The translations under genes were made by a program, and so were the position numbers. Positions 9,534 to 43,051 of a stretch of 64,000 nt of DNA are shown here, piece by piece (positions within the stretch are counted from its first letter, which is position 1; each line of letters begins with the position of its first letter). The stretch spans positions 478,053-542,052 of the forward strand of contig JAZKIU010000001.1 in assembly GCA_040384705.1 (NCBI GenBank), in the 5' to 3' direction. A model generated the notes under the pieces. It was not told where the DNA came from, searched no databases, and saw only the letters and a list, made by a program, of their open reading frames with translations. The DNA is from Patescibacteria group bacterium. Lineage in GTDB: Bacteria; Patescibacteriota; Minisyncoccia; Phycocordibacterales; Phycocordibacteraceae.

Positions 9534-10802
9534 TTACTTCCCGGTCGTAAGGAACTGTATAGCCCGCTCCTTCTGCGGATCCTCCCCTGCGAGCGCCTGC
9601 TCGCGCGTTCGCTCGACTTCTATATCAGGCATGAGCCCGCCGTCCGAAATGGAGCGGCCTCCTGGCGTGAGCCAGCGAGCGACGGTGACTTTCAGTGCTC
9701 CTCCGTTTATCTTCACGAGCTCCTGCACCGAACCCTTACCGAACGAGCGGGTACCGATGAGCGTCGCCTTCTTCTCGTCCTGGAGTGCACCTGCGAGAAT
9801 CTCGGACGCCGATGCCGAACCCTGGTTTATCAAAATGACTACCTTCGTGCTGGCCGGCACACCTCCCTTCCCCGTGCTCCGGTGCACGATGTTCTCCCGC
9901 TTGCCCTTATAGTCCTCGGTGACGACTGCGGCGCCGTCGGGCAGGAAGTGGCTCGCCATAGCGACCGCGGCCTCGAGGTATCCGCCGGGGTTCCCGCGCA
10001 GGTCGATGAGGAGCTTGTCCGAGCCCGACGTACGGAAGCCGGTGATGGCCTTGGAGAAGAGCTGCGCGGAGTTCGCCGTGAAGCTATAGAGCGAGATGCT
10101 GTACACGCCGGTCTTCTGATCGAGGGAGTGCTCGATGGTGGGGACGGTGATGGTGTCGCGGGTGACCGTGATGTCGATGACCTCGCCTTCGCGGAGTATC
10201 TTGAACACTACCTGGCTACCCTTAGGCCCGCGTATAAGCTTCACCGCCTGGTCGGACGAGAGGCCCTCCGTCGATGTGTCGTTTATGGAAAGTATGGCAT
10301 CGCCCGCGAGAATACCCGCGCGCTCCGCAGGCGTGCCCTTGAGCGGCGATATGACGGTGAGCTGCCCATCCTTCACTCCTATCTCCATGCCCACGCCCTC
10401 GAAGTTGCCGGCGATATCGTCCGCGAACAGCTTCGCTTCCTCAGGCGGCATGAATACGGTGTATGGGTCGCCATATGAGTTGGCGAGGCCTTGGATAGCG
10501 CCCCAGAGCTTGGCTTTTGCGGCCGGCATGCTCGAAGAGGCATGAGTCTCGACGAACTTCGCATCGAGCGCGTTCCAGGCCTTCCAGAAATCCGTAAGCT
10601 CGACCGATTCGTCCGGGGTCGCGTCGAGCCCGTCACCGATGAGCGGGAGGTTCGAGAACGCTTTCCCGCTCCCGGCCGCTCCTACCGATATGCCGCCCGC
10701 GAACCCGATAGCGAGCATCACGGCGAACGCGACGCCAAGCTTGGTCGCTTGCGCGAATGTCTGCGCTTTCTTCGGTGGTTTCACCTCGTCCATTAGAGCC
10801 AT
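9534..10802 (-). CDS. ctpA: Carboxyl-terminal processing protease (S41 family, PDZ domain)
   Basis: LIDLRGNPGG, GSASASEILAGALQD and GKGSVQ motifs, with an N-terminal transmembrane segment. Start chosen at an internal Met (MALMDEV / MDEV) to avoid overlap with corA. Confidence 0.85.
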   Translation of the reverse strand: MALMDEVKPPKKAQTFAQATKLGVAFAVMLAIGFAGGISVGAAGSGKAFSNLPLIGDGLDATPDESVELTDFWKAWNALDAKFVETHASSSMPAAKAKLWGAIQGLANSYGDPYTVFMPPEEAKLFADDIAGNFEGVGMEIGVKDGQLTVISPLKGTPAERAGILAGDAILSINDTSTEGLSSDQAVKLIRGPKGSQVVFKILREGEVIDITVTRDTITVPTIEHSLDQKTGVYSISLYSFTANSAQLFSKAITGFRTSGSDKLLIDLRGNPGGYLEAAVAMASHFLPDGAAVVTEDYKGKRENIVHRSTGKGGVPASTKVVILINQGSASASEILAGALQDEKKATLIGTRSFGKGSVQELVKINGGALKVTVARWLTPGGRSISDGGLMPDIEVERTREQALAGEDPQKERAIQFLTTGK

Positions 10803-15889: not shown

Positions 15890-16165
15890 CTATATGTAGT
15901 CGCACGAGATGTCGAAGCATCCCTTGGGCGCAGGCTCGGTCTGGATTTCCCATACCGCTTGGCGCAGCTGACCTACGCCCGGACCCGTGGCGAGCATGGT
16001 GGCGGTGGCGATTCCGGCGGTCAAGATACCGAGCACGGAGAAAAACACCGCCCCCGCCCTCTTCTTACTCATCACTATGCCGACGAGACCGCCGGTCAAT
16101 AGGATGAATGAACAGCCGGTCAACGGTAATAGATACGGGCGAAGCAATTCAAGCACAGATTCCAT
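15890..16165 (-). CDS. Small membrane protein, unknown function
   Basis: 91 aa with a strong SD (GGGAGGGG). Hydrophobic core and a C-terminal CFDISCDYI. Confidence 0.5.
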   Translation of the reverse strand: MESVLELLRPYLLPLTGCSFILLTGGLVGIVMSKKRAGAVFFSVLGILTAGIATATMLATGPGVGQLRQAVWEIQTEPAPKGCFDISCDYI

Positions 16166-16211
16166 TATCCCCTCCCTGGTTTCTATCGATGAATAGAGAA
16201 TCCTTAACTGG

Positions 16212-40159: not shown

Positions 40160-40453
40160 ATGAGACCCATCGGCGATTTCCTCCAGAAACCGGACGAGGG
40201 CGAGAGGCCCAAGAAGTCTCGCGCGACCGAGCGGGGCGAGCTCCTGCGGTTCTTCCAGCGCCATTTGAACTACTCCCGGGCCAACGATGGTCTCCCCAAG
40301 CTCACCATGGCGCGCCTCGGCAAGGTGCTCGAAGGCATACCGACAGATGACCTCTACTACCTAAAGTCGGTGTGCAGCCGCGCGAAGAACTTCAGCAAGA
40401 AGTTCTGGTGGGAGGTAGACCCGAAGAAGCACGAGGAGAAGCAGCCGTTCTAG
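40160..40453 (+). CDS. Hypothetical protein (97 aa)
   Basis: Protein-like composition; no recognisable domain. Confidence 0.35.
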   Translation: MRPIGDFLQKPDEGERPKKSRATERGELLRFFQRHLNYSRANDGLPKLTMARLGKVLEGIPTDDLYYLKSVCSRAKNFSKKFWWEVDPKKHEEKQPF

Positions 40454-40791
40454 AGGGATTGACTATCCTTTGGGATAGGTTATGATTACCTTGTTCCGGA
40501 ATTAAACAGCCGGAGCAAGCGCGGGGCTGCGCGCGGACTCCTCTCAAAAGACGTTCGTGCTGCCGGCCTCGCGCCCCTGTTCTTCTTAGAATCGAAAAGC
40601 TCTTCGTGCACGGAATAATGACCTGAATAAAATAGGGTCCGTGCCGTGGAGAGCCTGGTACGTGGATGAGTAAATTCACGGACAGCATGTCCCGCTGGGT
40701 ATCGAGCGCACTTGGGATTGACCCCCAGTCCCAACGAGGAACCAGGTCCCTGGGTCCCTCCGCTGCTCTACCTGGCGGGCATGTACCCGCC

Positions 40792-40836
40792 CCGACGTCC
40801 CCCTCCCTGCGAGGCGGACGTTTTCTTTTTATCCCC
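40792..40836 (+). terminator. Strong intrinsic terminator-like hairpin about 20 nt upstream of the def start codon
   Basis: ACGTCCCCCTC-CCTGC-GAGGCGGACGT (11-bp stem, one mismatch) followed by TTTTCTTTTT. Confidence 0.65.
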
Positions 40837-40856
40837 ATACTTGCTACCGTATTTTC

Positions 40857-41390
40857 ATGAACCCCATCGTCCAGAACGGCGACCCGGTATTGCGCGCGAA
40901 AGCAGCGCCGGTGCCCGAAGATATGTTCGGCACTCCCGAACTCGAGCGGATGCTCGAGGACATGGCGCATGCGCTCGATGCGGAACAGGACGGCGTCGCG
41001 CTCGCCGCGCCCCAGATATCCATTCCGTACCGCATATTCATCGCGCGCCTCGATCGCACGGTGCCGCCGCCCGAAGACGGGTCAAAGCACACGCCTGAGC
41101 TCCTCGTATGCATAAATCCTGAGTTCATCCGGAGCTCGCAGCGTCGCATAGAGATGGATGAGGGGTGCCTTTCGGTGCGGAGCGTATACGGGAAGACCAA
41201 ACGACACGAGCGCGCCACCATACGGGCGCGCGGCAAGGACGGATCCACGTTCGAGCGTGGCGGGGGCGGCCTCATCGCGCAGATATACCAGCATGAGATA
41301 GACCATCTCAATGGCATCCTCTTCATCGACCATGCCACCGAGCTCGTGGAGGTGAAGCGGAGCGAGGACGCCGAGGGAGAAGCGCTATGA
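40857..41390 (+). CDS. def: Peptide deformylase
   Basis: GVALAAPQ, EGCLS and HEIDHL motifs. Confidence 0.92.
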   Translation: MNPIVQNGDPVLRAKAAPVPEDMFGTPELERMLEDMAHALDAEQDGVALAAPQISIPYRIFIARLDRTVPPPEDGSKHTPELLVCINPEFIRSSQRRIEMDEGCLSVRSVYGKTKRHERATIRARGKDGSTFERGGGGLIAQIYQHEIDHLNGILFIDHATELVEVKRSEDAEGEAL

Positions 41391-42229
41391 GCAGGTTCAT
41401 ATACTTCGGAACGCCGTACGTCGCGCGCGATACGCTCGCGACGCTCGTTGAACGCGGGTTCGTGCCCGAAGTCGTCGTATCGTCCCCGGACGCTGCCCGG
41501 GGCCGCGGGCTCATGCTCGCGCCGTCCGAAACAAAAGAATGGGCACTCGCGAACGGACTTCCCGTGCTCACCCCCGAGAAGCTCACGCCGGAAGTTATTG
41601 AGGAGCTCAAGGCGTACGGGTGCGACTACGCGATCGTGGTCGCATACGGGAAGATACTCCCTCAGGCGCTCATCGATGCATTCCCGCTCGGCATACTCAA
41701 CATCCACTACTCTCTTCTCCCGAAATACCGCGGGGCTTCCCCGGTAGAGGCCGCGCTCTTGAACGGAGAGACGGTGACGGGCGTTTCCATACAGCAGATG
41801 GTCTACAAGCTCGATGCCGGTGACGTGCTGGCGCAAAGAGAGGTGACGATAGAGCCCGAGGAGACCACGAGGGAGCTGCGCCCACGCTTGGTGGCTCTTG
41901 GAGCGGAACTACTCGCCGACACCCTTCCTGCGTTCGTTCAAGGAAGTCTCACCCCGATGCCGCAGGACGAGAGCGCCGCGACCTTCTCGAAGAAGATAGA
42001 GAAGAGCGAGGGCGAGCTCGATCTGGCGGGCGATGCGCGTATGAATTGGAACAAGTACCGTGCATACGCTGAATCACCTGGCACGTACTTCTTCATGGAG
42101 CGGAACGGGAAACGTCTCCGGGTGAGGATAGTCACCGCTACGCTCTCGGACGGGATATTCACGCCCGACCGTATCGTTCCTGAAGGCAAGAAGGAGATGG
42201 CGTACGTCGATTTCGTACGCGCGCACTAA
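41387..42229 (+). CDS. fmt: Methionyl-tRNA formyltransferase
   Basis: Overlaps def (ATGA). Formyltransferase N-terminus with the SLLP motif; 280 aa. Confidence 0.88.
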   Translation: MSRFIYFGTPYVARDTLATLVERGFVPEVVVSSPDAARGRGLMLAPSETKEWALANGLPVLTPEKLTPEVIEELKAYGCDYAIVVAYGKILPQALIDAFPLGILNIHYSLLPKYRGASPVEAALLNGETVTGVSIQQMVYKLDAGDVLAQREVTIEPEETTRELRPRLVALGAELLADTLPAFVQGSLTPMPQDESAATFSKKIEKSEGELDLAGDARMNWNKYRAYAESPGTYFFMERNGKRLRVRIVTATLSDGIFTPDRIVPEGKKEMAYVDFVRAH

Positions 42230-42509
42230 ATGGTGGAGGCCCGCGGGTGCGGGCCTCGTACGCCACTAGATGACGATTGGGTATATATCGCCGGTATCCT
42301 GGCGTTTCGCGAAGATAAGATCGCCGCGCTCCAAATCGCCCCTTCCATACGGGAGGAAGTAGATTGGATTCTCCTCCGGAAGGGATTTCTGTTGCGGCCG
42401 GCATACCTGCCATGTGTCGCCTGACAGCGAAGTGTTGGGTATATACATGGAATTCCCCATTACTATCCTGCGAGCAAGAGTACACCCACCCCCCTTCTAT
42501 GCAACTACG

Positions 42510-42875
42510 TCACGCATGGAATCCCCGCATGATTGATTTGAACATTCCGCCGCCCCTGCGTACCAAGCTTATCTCCTTCTTGCGCGCAGTATGCAGCTCG
42601 CTCGCGAGCTCCCTCACGGCGGTATCGAGCGCCGTCTCGATGGATTCGTCCACCGCCTTCGCGTAGAAGCGGCGGCCATCCGCATCGAAGTTGATATCGA
42701 CGTACCAGATCCTGCCGGCCTGATGCGCCTCGGTCTCCTTCCCCATGTCCACGTACGCGCGCACGTGCCCGTCGCTCTTCCCTAGATACTTCCTCAATCC
42801 CTCGATCTTCCGGCTCGCGAGCGCGCTTACCTCAGGAGCGAGCTCATAGTTAGTTCCTTTGAAGTGTATCTGCAT
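42510..42875 (-). CDS. hpf: Ribosome hibernation promoting factor (short HPF / RaiA type)
   Basis: Internal start MQIHFKGTNYELAPEVSALASRKIEGLRKY. Confidence 0.85.
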   Translation of the reverse strand: MQIHFKGTNYELAPEVSALASRKIEGLRKYLGKSDGHVRAYVDMGKETEAHQAGRIWYVDINFDADGRRFYAKAVDESIETALDTAVRELASELHTARKKEISLVRRGGGMFKSIMRGFHA

Positions 42876-43051
42876 ATGAATGCTATGGATTAACTCTAGT
42901 AAGTATACGGGAGCGCGAGCGGTGGCCTGCGTCGATACTATGCATACCTGATGCATGCCGTAGTTCCCGTGAAGATGCATCCACTCCGGATTGCTGATTT
43001 CCCATTTTCAGCTAGAATGCGGAAGTCCTCCTCGGAGGACATGTGCGTATA

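Follow-up and report, generated by a model that had tools for sequence, protein, structure and literature searches.

A probable stand-alone structured RNA gene between a small open reading frame and def in a Patescibacteria group bacterium

In a genome of the Patescibacteria group, def is preceded by a long intergenic region that ends in a hairpin and a run of T nucleotides, which raises the question of whether this region controls def or is a gene in its own right. The region lies within a stretch of 64,000 nucleotides (nt) of contig JAZKIU010000001.1 (assembly GCA_040384705.1, positions 478,053 to 542,052), which we call the window and whose own numbering we use. An initial annotation of this DNA had offered two explanations: an unclassified structured RNA gene with its own terminator, or a cis-regulatory leader, i.e., a riboswitch or attenuator, of the def-fmt operon. 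The first of these is supported by a predicted promoter, strand-specific structure, selection, synteny, compensatory changes and the absence of any match by Rfam models or ARAGORN. We consider it quite probable that positions 40493-40830 (+ strand) are an independent functional RNA gene that extends from promoter to terminator. This RNA most likely belongs to an unclassified, fast-evolving family located between a small open reading frame (ORF) and def in one clade of Candidatus Paceibacterota (Parcubacteria), which is part of the candidate phyla radiation (CPR). The leader explanation was not supported. The relevant features are these:

40160-40453, + strand: small ORF of 97 amino acids, hypothetical, conserved and always preceding the element; used here as the anchor for genomic context and synteny
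40459-40486, + strand: putative RNA promoter (P1), with -35 element TTGACT at 40459-40464, a 16-nt spacer and -10 element TATGAT at 40481-40486
40493-40830, + strand: predicted small RNA transcript of ~338 nt, starting ~7 nt past the -10 element and ending with the T-tract
40794-40830, + strand: predicted intrinsic terminator, consisting of an 11-bp hairpin (40794-40822) and TTTTCTTTTT at 40821-40830
40842-40856, + strand: putative def promoter, with the extended -10 element TGC-TACCGT (TGCTACCGT) at 40842-40850, then ATTTTC (6 nt) and the ATG
40857-41390, + strand: def (Pfam PF01327, 8e-41)
41387-42229, + strand: fmt (Pfam PF00551, 1e-37)

The gap between the stop codon of the small ORF and the def ATG (40857) is 403 nt long (40454-40856), in agreement with the initial annotation. 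Folding likewise confirmed the terminal hairpin with 11 pairs and the T-tract, and the ATGA overlap of def and fmt is present at 41387-41390. An inspection of the 26 nt preceding the def ATG found no GGAG-like sequence, so that def indeed lacks a Shine-Dalgarno (SD) sequence. Other statements need to be revised. The distance from the end of the T-tract to the ATG is 26 nt rather than 20, and the segment described as GC-rich has 56% G+C, which is slightly under the window mean of 58.6%. The description of the gap as free of ORFs is literally incorrect, as mechanical ORFs of 64, 82 and 192 amino acids overlap it, although none of these is conserved. The 64-amino-acid ORF on the + strand is broken by a 2-nt indel in a close relative (locus L081), substitutions relative to L081 show no significant 3-base periodicity (5/4/9), and tblastx among members of the family found nothing beyond near-identical pairs.

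The evidence for a separate transcription unit begins with P1. This promoter matches the consensus at 10 of 12 positions, begins five bases past the stop codon of the small ORF, and shows 100% identity to L081, in contrast to the difference of 37.5% at neutral sites of the two genomes. Inspection of the related loci described below revealed a TTGxxx element (mostly TTGAC) near the stop codon of the small ORF, with a -10-like hexamer ~17 nt further on, in nearly all loci that have the RNA. The spacers of these promoters differ in sequence between loci, and the promoter of L121 is ~55 nt from the stop codon. The P1 spacer of the window has a perfect 6-bp palindrome, CTATCC-TTTG-GGATAG (40463-40478), which is unchanged in L081 and is lacking in other family members; it may serve as an operator, or as a weak terminator of the upstream operon.

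At the other end, the terminator hairpin is formed by 7+4 pairs around a 1x1 C/C internal loop, with a CCUGC loop, and has a predicted free energy of -16.6 kcal/mol (z -3.9). Its sequence is identical in L081. A simple terminator scan did not list this hairpin, probably because of the internal mismatch. In all RNA-bearing loci whose sequence reaches def, the element ends in a G+C hairpin and a T-tract just before the def promoter. Thus, a promoter and an intrinsic terminator of its own, as expected of a stand-alone gene for a small RNA in an intergenic region, are recognizable at the sequence level across 32 loci.

The predicted structure is stable, and more so on the + strand than on the opposite strand. 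The fold of the whole + strand has a free energy of -172.9 kcal/mol (z = -6.46, with 0 of 100 shuffled sequences equally good), as compared to z = -2.8 for the - strand; for the transcript 40493-40830, the corresponding z values are -6.26 (sense) and -2.9 (antisense). Both the minimum free energy (MFE) and centroid folds consist of six separate hairpin modules, namely H1 to H5 and the terminator, and leave the ends of the RNA unpaired. Each module folds independently, with z between -3.7 and -5.4. The modules upstream of the terminator, and the linker between H2 and H3, are as follows:

40493-40516, + strand: H1, a 7-bp hairpin with a 10-nt loop (-9.3 kcal/mol, z -3.95)
40519-40574, + strand: H2, a long G+C-rich stalk (-35.4 kcal/mol, z -3.9)
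40575-40598, + strand: single-stranded, pyrimidine-rich linker, CCCUGUUCUUCUUAGAAUCGAAAA, with family consensus CCCUGYYCUUUY
40599-40654, + strand: H3 (-21.7 kcal/mol, z -4.0)
40655-40685, + strand: H4, a small hairpin (-10.7 kcal/mol, z -3.7)
40686-40785, + strand: H5, a multi-branch domain (-53.1 kcal/mol, z -5.35)

The base helix of H2 pairs 40519-40528 with 40565-40574, and its apex exposes CUCCUCUC (40538-40545). H3 has an apical hairpin (40620-40639) with stem GACCU/GGGUC and loop GAAUAAAAUA, preceded by the -10-like box AAUAAU (40614-40619). H5 is closed by a long-range helix of ~16 bp, inside which is a hairpin whose loop is ACCCC (40721-40725). CCCCCUCCCUG is found on the 5' side of the terminator.

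A comparison with L081, whose MurA, small ORF product and Def proteins are 97-98% identical to those of the window, allowed us to examine selection on the RNA. As a neutral standard, we used the four-fold degenerate sites of murA, the small ORF, def and fmt, of which 195 of 520 (37.5%) differ. The gap is divided into segments that differ as follows:

40454-40489: stop codon to the end of P1; 3 of 36 positions differ, all within the first four bases
40490-40560: H1 and the 5' arm and apex of H2; 43 of 72 positions differ (60%)
40561-40830: RNA body and terminator; 20 of 272 aligned columns differ (7.4%)
40831-40856: def promoter; 0 of 26 positions differ

The divergence of 7.4% in the RNA body as against 37.5% at four-fold sites (binomial p ~1e-30) indicates, at the level of sequence comparison, that the RNA body is under strong purifying selection. 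The 5' 70 nt of the RNA have diverged at least as much as neutral sites, yet hairpins form in both the window and the L081 versions. In L081, H1 is replaced by another hairpin in the same spot, and a CCUCUC-type loop is kept at the apex of H2 in both. The contigs of L082, L083, L086, L106, L164 and L177 end within or just before the equivalent of 40490-40560, which would fit strain-level hypervariability of the 5' part of the RNA breaking assemblies.

We then asked how widely the element occurs. In the closest species-representative genome (L001; Def 61% identical), the same small ORF is followed by def after only ~80 nt. A metagenome scan with the small ORF yielded 80 loci with the order murA, small ORF, def and fmt, and look-ups of exact proteins added 20 further loci. 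Names of homologues place the clade in Candidatus Paceibacterota/Parcubacteria, and one copy of the RNA is in the public metagenome-assembled genome GCA_035628215.1. Loci fall into two classes by the bimodal spacing of the small ORF and def, which is 4-110 nt in about 35 loci and 150-540 nt in 32 distinct loci; in a few, other genes occupy this position. Each long gap that is free of genes has a TTGAC-type -35 element after the stop codon, a spacer of ~17 nt that is unrelated in sequence, a -10 element, H1 and H2. Onward from H2 there are a pyrimidine-rich strand, anywhere from zero to several modules, a G+C hairpin with a T-tract, and the def promoter. The length of the element is ~100 to 410 nt, and the minimal members, L115 (100 nt), L104 (125 nt) and L153 (160 nt), have only H1, H2, the linker and the terminator, and lack H3. 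All 28 members tested fold better than their shuffled sequences, with a mean z of -6.5 in the sense and -4.2 in the antisense direction.

Certain elements recur in this layout. A short first hairpin, whose loop is often C-rich, occurs in nearly all members, and inspection found CCUC, CUCC or CCCC in the apical region of H2 in most of them. The linker motif follows H2 in the window, L081, L083, L170, L166, L161, L169, L174, L158, L133, L153, L179 and L180. The H3 motif CTGAAYAN{1,3}ATAGG (40623-40636, + strand) is also present in the RNAs of L081, L090, L091 and L092, where 0.02 matches per window would be expected. L170 and L179 have a domain of the H5 design with a different sequence. A box of the form xAxAAT is found in single-stranded parts of H3 in the window, L083, L087, L090, L092, L161, L166, L169, L170, L174, L175, L177, L179 and L180; most members have one of its variants TACAAT, TATAAT, CATAAT, GATAAT or AATAAT. 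A promoter scan scored 40592-40619 as promoter-like. The box could be an RNA motif, or it could be a weak internal DNA promoter that gives rise to a shorter transcript.

Analysis of covariation in homologous gaps, which had been suggested as a check on the initial annotation, provided support in that double changes were found in the H2 base and the H3 apex, but was less favorable in that the sets are small and partly registered by hand. For the H2 base helix, we registered the arms of 14 members on the core GCGCGGG/CCCGCGC and counted them by hand, with no covariance model, because plain MAFFT mis-registers these arms. In this arrangement, pairing is possible in 92.9% of cells, and both sides have changed in 6 of 10 pairs (G-C/A-U, C-G/U-A and others). 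Slid relative to each other, the partners pair in no more than 58% of cells. The score for covariation was 0.448, versus 0.221 in shuffles, none of which (0 of 500) scored as high. In the apical stem of H3 (window, L081, L090, L091 and L092), 88% of cells are paired and double changes affect 3 of 5 pairs; its score is 0.58 versus 0.165 in shuffles (0 of 500 as high). While the stem varies, e.g., GACCU/GGGUC in the window versus CUGCU/GGCAG in L092, the loop GAAUAAAAUA and the flanking AUAAU are invariant or nearly so. In another helix, P3a, the pairing of AUCUGCAG with CUGCGGAU in L161 corresponds to that of AUCCCGUC with GAUGGGAU in L177, which amounts to four double changes. RNAalifold, applied to MAFFT alignments, predicted 62 and 83 pairs, of which 20 and 25, respectively, show double changes. 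Between the window and L081, there is a compensatory change from U-A to C-G at 40700/40770 in H5, and a G.U pair at position 40665 in H4 becomes A-U. In the MFE model, 8 substitutions relative to L081 are at unpaired positions and 4 pairs are kept. It is important to consider that the sequences in these small sets are related to each other.

If the RNA is terminated before def, the question arises of how def is expressed. An element of the form TAnnnT that ends 5-8 nt (mostly 6-7 nt) before the def start is present in 59 of 72 distinct relatives, and has the TGn extension in 51. In control windows inside def, this layout occurred in 0 of 72. The -10 element is kept with or without the RNA. Judging from its sequence, def has the characteristics of a leaderless gene, i.e., a -10 element placed for a transcription start at the A of the ATG and no SD. 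Most simply, def would be a leaderless gene with its own promoter, and its lack of an SD would be due to leaderless transcription and not to leader-mediated control.

Many likely first genes of the window have a -10-like hexamer, often TGn-extended, that ends 6-7 nt before an ATG lacking an SD, namely those at 10793 (-), 11807 (+), 13308 (+), 17606 (-), 30394 (-), 40160 (+), 53461 (+), 55946 (-) and 57931 (+). The gene at 40160 is the small ORF, which itself seems to be leaderless, with TGGTACCAT followed by 6 nt and the ATG. Some internal genes have GGAGG-like sites, e.g., before 37181, 16165 and fmt. From its sequence, this genome looks like one in which leaderless transcription is a general habit.

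The RNA matches no described family, although its kind, namely a small RNA that runs from promoter to terminator and has C-rich loops, is already known. With Rfam gathering thresholds, cmscan found two tRNAs only in the whole window. A search of 40300-41000 with 4227 Rfam families at E<=10 gave no match, and a search of the RNA regions of ten homologous loci at E<=5 gave no relevant match. ARAGORN found tRNA-Glu and tRNA-Asn only in the window, and no transfer-messenger RNA (tmRNA). The initial annotation had likewise found no signature motifs of tmRNA, RNase P or signal recognition particle (SRP) RNA. In searches for relatives by sequence among the 80 genome and 80 metagenome loci, nhmmer and blastn recovered only the near-identical L081 and, later, a weak match to L170, and all-versus-all comparisons of the gaps by blastn and tblastx found only near-identical pairs and, in common, the end that comprises the terminator and def promoter. 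A descriptor of the H2 base (paired GCGRG...CYCGC) is too unspecific as a search tool in G+C-rich DNA, with 226 matches in 1.06 Mb.

One alternative is that the element is a cis-regulatory leader, such that transcripts from P1 conditionally read through 40794-40830 and thereby set the expression of def and fmt. Like terminator riboswitches and attenuators, the element is directly upstream of a gene on the same strand, in this case always def, and ends in an intrinsic terminator, which is 26 nt before the ATG. Moreover, the small, well-conserved H3 motif is a possible binding pocket, and the U-rich unstructured stretch before the ATG might permit SD-independent initiation on a readthrough transcript. 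However, we regard this explanation as improbable. A promoter-like TGn-extended -10 element is situated between the terminator and the ATG; it is found with or without the RNA and is 100% conserved relative to L081. By inspection, we found no antiterminator partner upstream for the 5' arm of the terminator (GACGUCCCCCUCC), and the only G-run of at least 4 nt in the RNA (40523-40526) is paired inside H2. The H3 motif is 150-200 nt away from the terminator, with variable modules in between, and, as the minimal members show, no sensor or aptamer core is common to all. The element is also highly variable in size and absent in about half of the relatives, and there is no match to an Rfam riboswitch or T-box at E<=10. 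The raiA motif RNA is a stand-alone structured RNA that was likewise first taken for a cis-regulatory leader. Our RNA resembles it in having a leader-like position, its own putative promoter and terminator, and an HPF/RaiA homologue nearby (42510-42980, - strand), but differs in that it has another layout and no Rfam raiA match, and in that hpf is on the opposite strand, beyond fmt. Slightly less likely than a leader is an RNA that binds a protein by means of the xAxAAT box and H3 apex, either as an analogue of 6S or Ms1 RNA that acts on RNA polymerase or a sigma factor, or as a sponge. A strong promoter, a stand-alone gene and a structure that is kept while the sequence drifts are typical of such RNAs, and 6S and Ms1 RNAs provide a parallel in these respects and in their single-stranded -10-like boxes. 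In our RNAs, -10-like hexamers recur in the H3 of most members, and the invariant AUAAU adjoins a covarying hairpin with a conserved loop. On the other hand, the RNA has no 6S-like rod with a central bubble, its 5' and 3' ends are unpaired, half of the relatives do not have it, the minimal members lack H3, and no Rfam 6S model matches at E<=10. The box in H3 is equally a possible weak internal DNA promoter, and we know of no precedent for a sigma factor that binds a -10-like RNA sequence.

A further explanation, about as unlikely as a protein-binding RNA, is that the region has no function as RNA, and is instead a slot for accessory or once-mobile DNA, or a cluster of terminators that insulates def from transcription of murA and the small ORF. 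This idea is consistent with the cargo of the junction, which differs between relatives, with the pattern of presence and absence, and with the difference of 60% in the 5' 70 nt of near-identical strains. It does not account for a divergence that is five-fold below that of neutral sites over 270 nt, nor for a consensus promoter whose position is conserved across RNA-bearing loci; insulation would require ~30 nt, and not 340 nt and a promoter. As to mobile DNA such as miniature inverted-repeat transposable elements or insertion sequences, the window has no second copy, phage and plasmid collections have no match, the ends pair over 5 nt only, with no longer terminal inverted repeats, and the site and orientation are constant. 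Less probable than any of these explanations is a housekeeping RNA of a familiar class (6S, RNase P, tmRNA or SRP RNA), or else a coding gene or pseudogene, in either case too diverged to be recognized by the models. Divergent universal RNAs are often found in CPR lineages, and ~340 nt is a suitable size for RNase P RNA or tmRNA. However, neither Rfam nor ARAGORN gave a match, inspection by eye showed no conserved-region motifs of RNase P (GAGGAAAGUCC and ACAGAA), and an essential RNA could not be missing from half of the relatives, as this element is. A coding function is contradicted by the frame-breaking indel and by the lack of codon periodicity and of a tblastx signal noted above. Among other element classes, we rejected a retron RNA (inspection showed no reverse transcriptase nearby), a repeat-type antitoxin RNA (there are no internal repeats), a rho-utilization site (by inspection, the RNA is C-rich but highly structured), and a target of a diversity-generating retroelement (on inspection, the differences from L081 do not look adenine-specific).

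Given a probable RNA gene, we investigated which parts of the RNA might be functional. The most conspicuous bias in composition concerns runs of C. On the sense strand of the 28 RNAs, runs of at least 4 nt number 85 for C versus 12 for G, and the C-runs are mostly unpaired in MFE folds. Similarly, CCCCC occurs 47 times versus 2 for GGGGG, and CCTCC 24 times versus 4 for GGAGG. The density of C-runs is 9.5/kb in the RNAs and 3.2/kb in the whole window. In the RNA of the window, the exposed strands are CUCCUCUC at the apex of H2, the linker (40575-40598), the ACCCC loop of H5 and the 5' flank of the terminator, CCCCCUCCCUG. Several unpaired C-rich motifs that are restricted to the sense strand, as we observe here, are also a property of the 6C and RsaE/RoxS class of RNAs.

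The 6C RNA of Actinobacteria (RF01066) is a stand-alone RNA of ~60-90 nt with its own promoter and terminator; it has two hairpins with C-rich loops and is conserved in sequence. Its hosts have high G+C content and many leaderless mRNAs. Our RNA is similar to 6C RNA in its own putative promoter, its intrinsic terminator and the C-rich loops on stable hairpins. It differs in that its family is 100-410 nt long, modular and drifts so rapidly that profiles fail beyond close relatives, and in that no Rfam model matches at E<=10. The RsaE/RoxS small RNAs of Firmicutes are trans-encoded, their C-rich motifs pair with SD sequences, and their terminator hairpin is C-rich. The RNA of the window shares with these the multiple unpaired C-rich motifs complementary to GGAGG-like sequences and a C-rich motif in the terminator hairpin; it is, however, much larger and has no match in sequence or model. 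To our knowledge, no chaperone context is established in CPR bacteria. We found nothing specific to small RNAs or leaderless translation in CPR bacteria or Patescibacteria in the literature.

From these sequence features, we propose a model in which the sigma-70-type promoter P1, directly past the small ORF, would start the RNA, which would fold into six self-contained modules (H1-H5 and the terminator), and in which transcription would stop at the intrinsic terminator. Separately, an extended -10 element belonging to def, 6 nt before the ATG, would direct the synthesis of a leaderless def mRNA, and the terminator of the RNA would shield this promoter from upstream transcription. The stems would be scaffolds whose evolution proceeds through compensatory changes or the exchange of whole helices, and the working parts would be the exposed C/U-rich strands, namely CUCCUCUC, CCCUGUUCUUCUU of the linker, ACCCC and CCCCCUCCCUG, which resemble an anti-SD sequence. 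By analogy with the C-rich loops of 6C, RsaE and RoxS, these strands may act in trans by pairing with mRNAs at G-rich or SD-like sites, or they may titrate a binding protein. We judge the RNA gene and the mechanism based on C-rich loops, taken together, to be somewhat favored. That trans pairing of anti-SD-like C-rich loops with G-rich or SD-like RNA is the mode of action is a tentative suggestion, which we consider less likely than not to be correct.

A number of observations count against these proposals. The start and end of the transcript are predicted from sequence alone. The absence of the element from about half of the relatives implies that it is dispensable. In the comparison with L081, 5 of 9 substituted pairs are broken in the MFE model, and registration of helix arms by hand biases the percentage of paired cells. 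Iterated nhmmer profiles recovered nothing past the window, L081, L170 and L179, and the subgroups of the family are not linked by sequence; its unity thus rests on synteny, common layout, short motifs and the H2 base. As to the C-rich loops, the mechanism is an analogy, and complementarity to SD-like G-tracts is generic. No specific conserved target of the loops was found, and the only target test that we made, pairing of the RNA with the 5' end of its own def mRNA, gave no signal (-36.99 kcal/mol for cognate and -37.01 kcal/mol for non-cognate combinations). Elsewhere in the window, CCCCUCCCUG on the 5' side of the terminator (40800-40809) is perfectly complementary to CAGGGAGGGG in the ribosome-binding region (16166-16185) of the - strand gene at 16165; given the compositional bias, this single match of 10 nt could well be due to chance.

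The surroundings of the element warrant brief description. The small ORF has 433 homologues at E<=1e-20, every one of which is called hypothetical and belongs to Paceibacterota/Parcubacteria. It has no Pfam match; an AlphaFold2 model is all-helical, with a predicted local distance difference test score (pLDDT) of 79.5, and a search of PDB folds with this model gave no match. The junction between the small ORF and def is a variable slot, which can contain nothing, a GIY-YIG ORF (L125), a transposase-like ORF between palindromes (L149) or reversed ORFs (L110, L120, L127 and L151); the gaps of L137 and L151/L156 are among these variable-slot loci. The GIY-YIG nuclease ORF of L125 (958-1233; PF01541, E = 7.5e-18) separates def from its promoter, shares an ATGA overlap with the def start codon, and is flanked by the inverted repeat CCCGTTAGAGATA...TATCTCTAACGGG. 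Positions 3295-3472 of L124 are an apparent remnant of an insert of this type. On the other side of the operon, a gene similar to hpf/raiA (PF02482; 42510-42980, - strand) is convergent with fmt. The fmt/hpf intergenic region (42249-42548), which serves as an unconstrained comparison for the RNA body, has diverged beyond alignment in the window and L081, despite a DNA identity of ~90% in the genes on either side.

These results bear on the biology of the clade in several ways. CPR genomes are small and tightly packed, and their non-coding RNAs are almost unexplored; in such a genome, the cell therefore makes a real investment in keeping an element of 340 nt with a consensus promoter and under strong selection. 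The 32 loci, with their defined modules and a public copy in GCA_035628215.1, constitute an RNA family that can be tested. For def and many other first genes, the missing ribosome-binding sites would be explained by leaderless transcription from TGnTAnnnT elements 6-7 nt before the ATG. The locus also cautions against assuming that a structured region with a terminator before a gene must be a leader. Should SD-like sequences indeed be acted on by the C-rich loops, regulation by a small RNA would be tied to the balance between leaderless and SD-led translation. A more far-reaching version of this idea, which we offer as speculation and think rather unlikely to be correct, is that a CPR-specific, strongly expressed scaffold RNA with anti-SD-like loops titrates SD-led mRNAs, or the factors that read them, and thus shifts translation to leaderless mRNAs, while the H1/H2 end, as a display, diversifies between co-existing strains.

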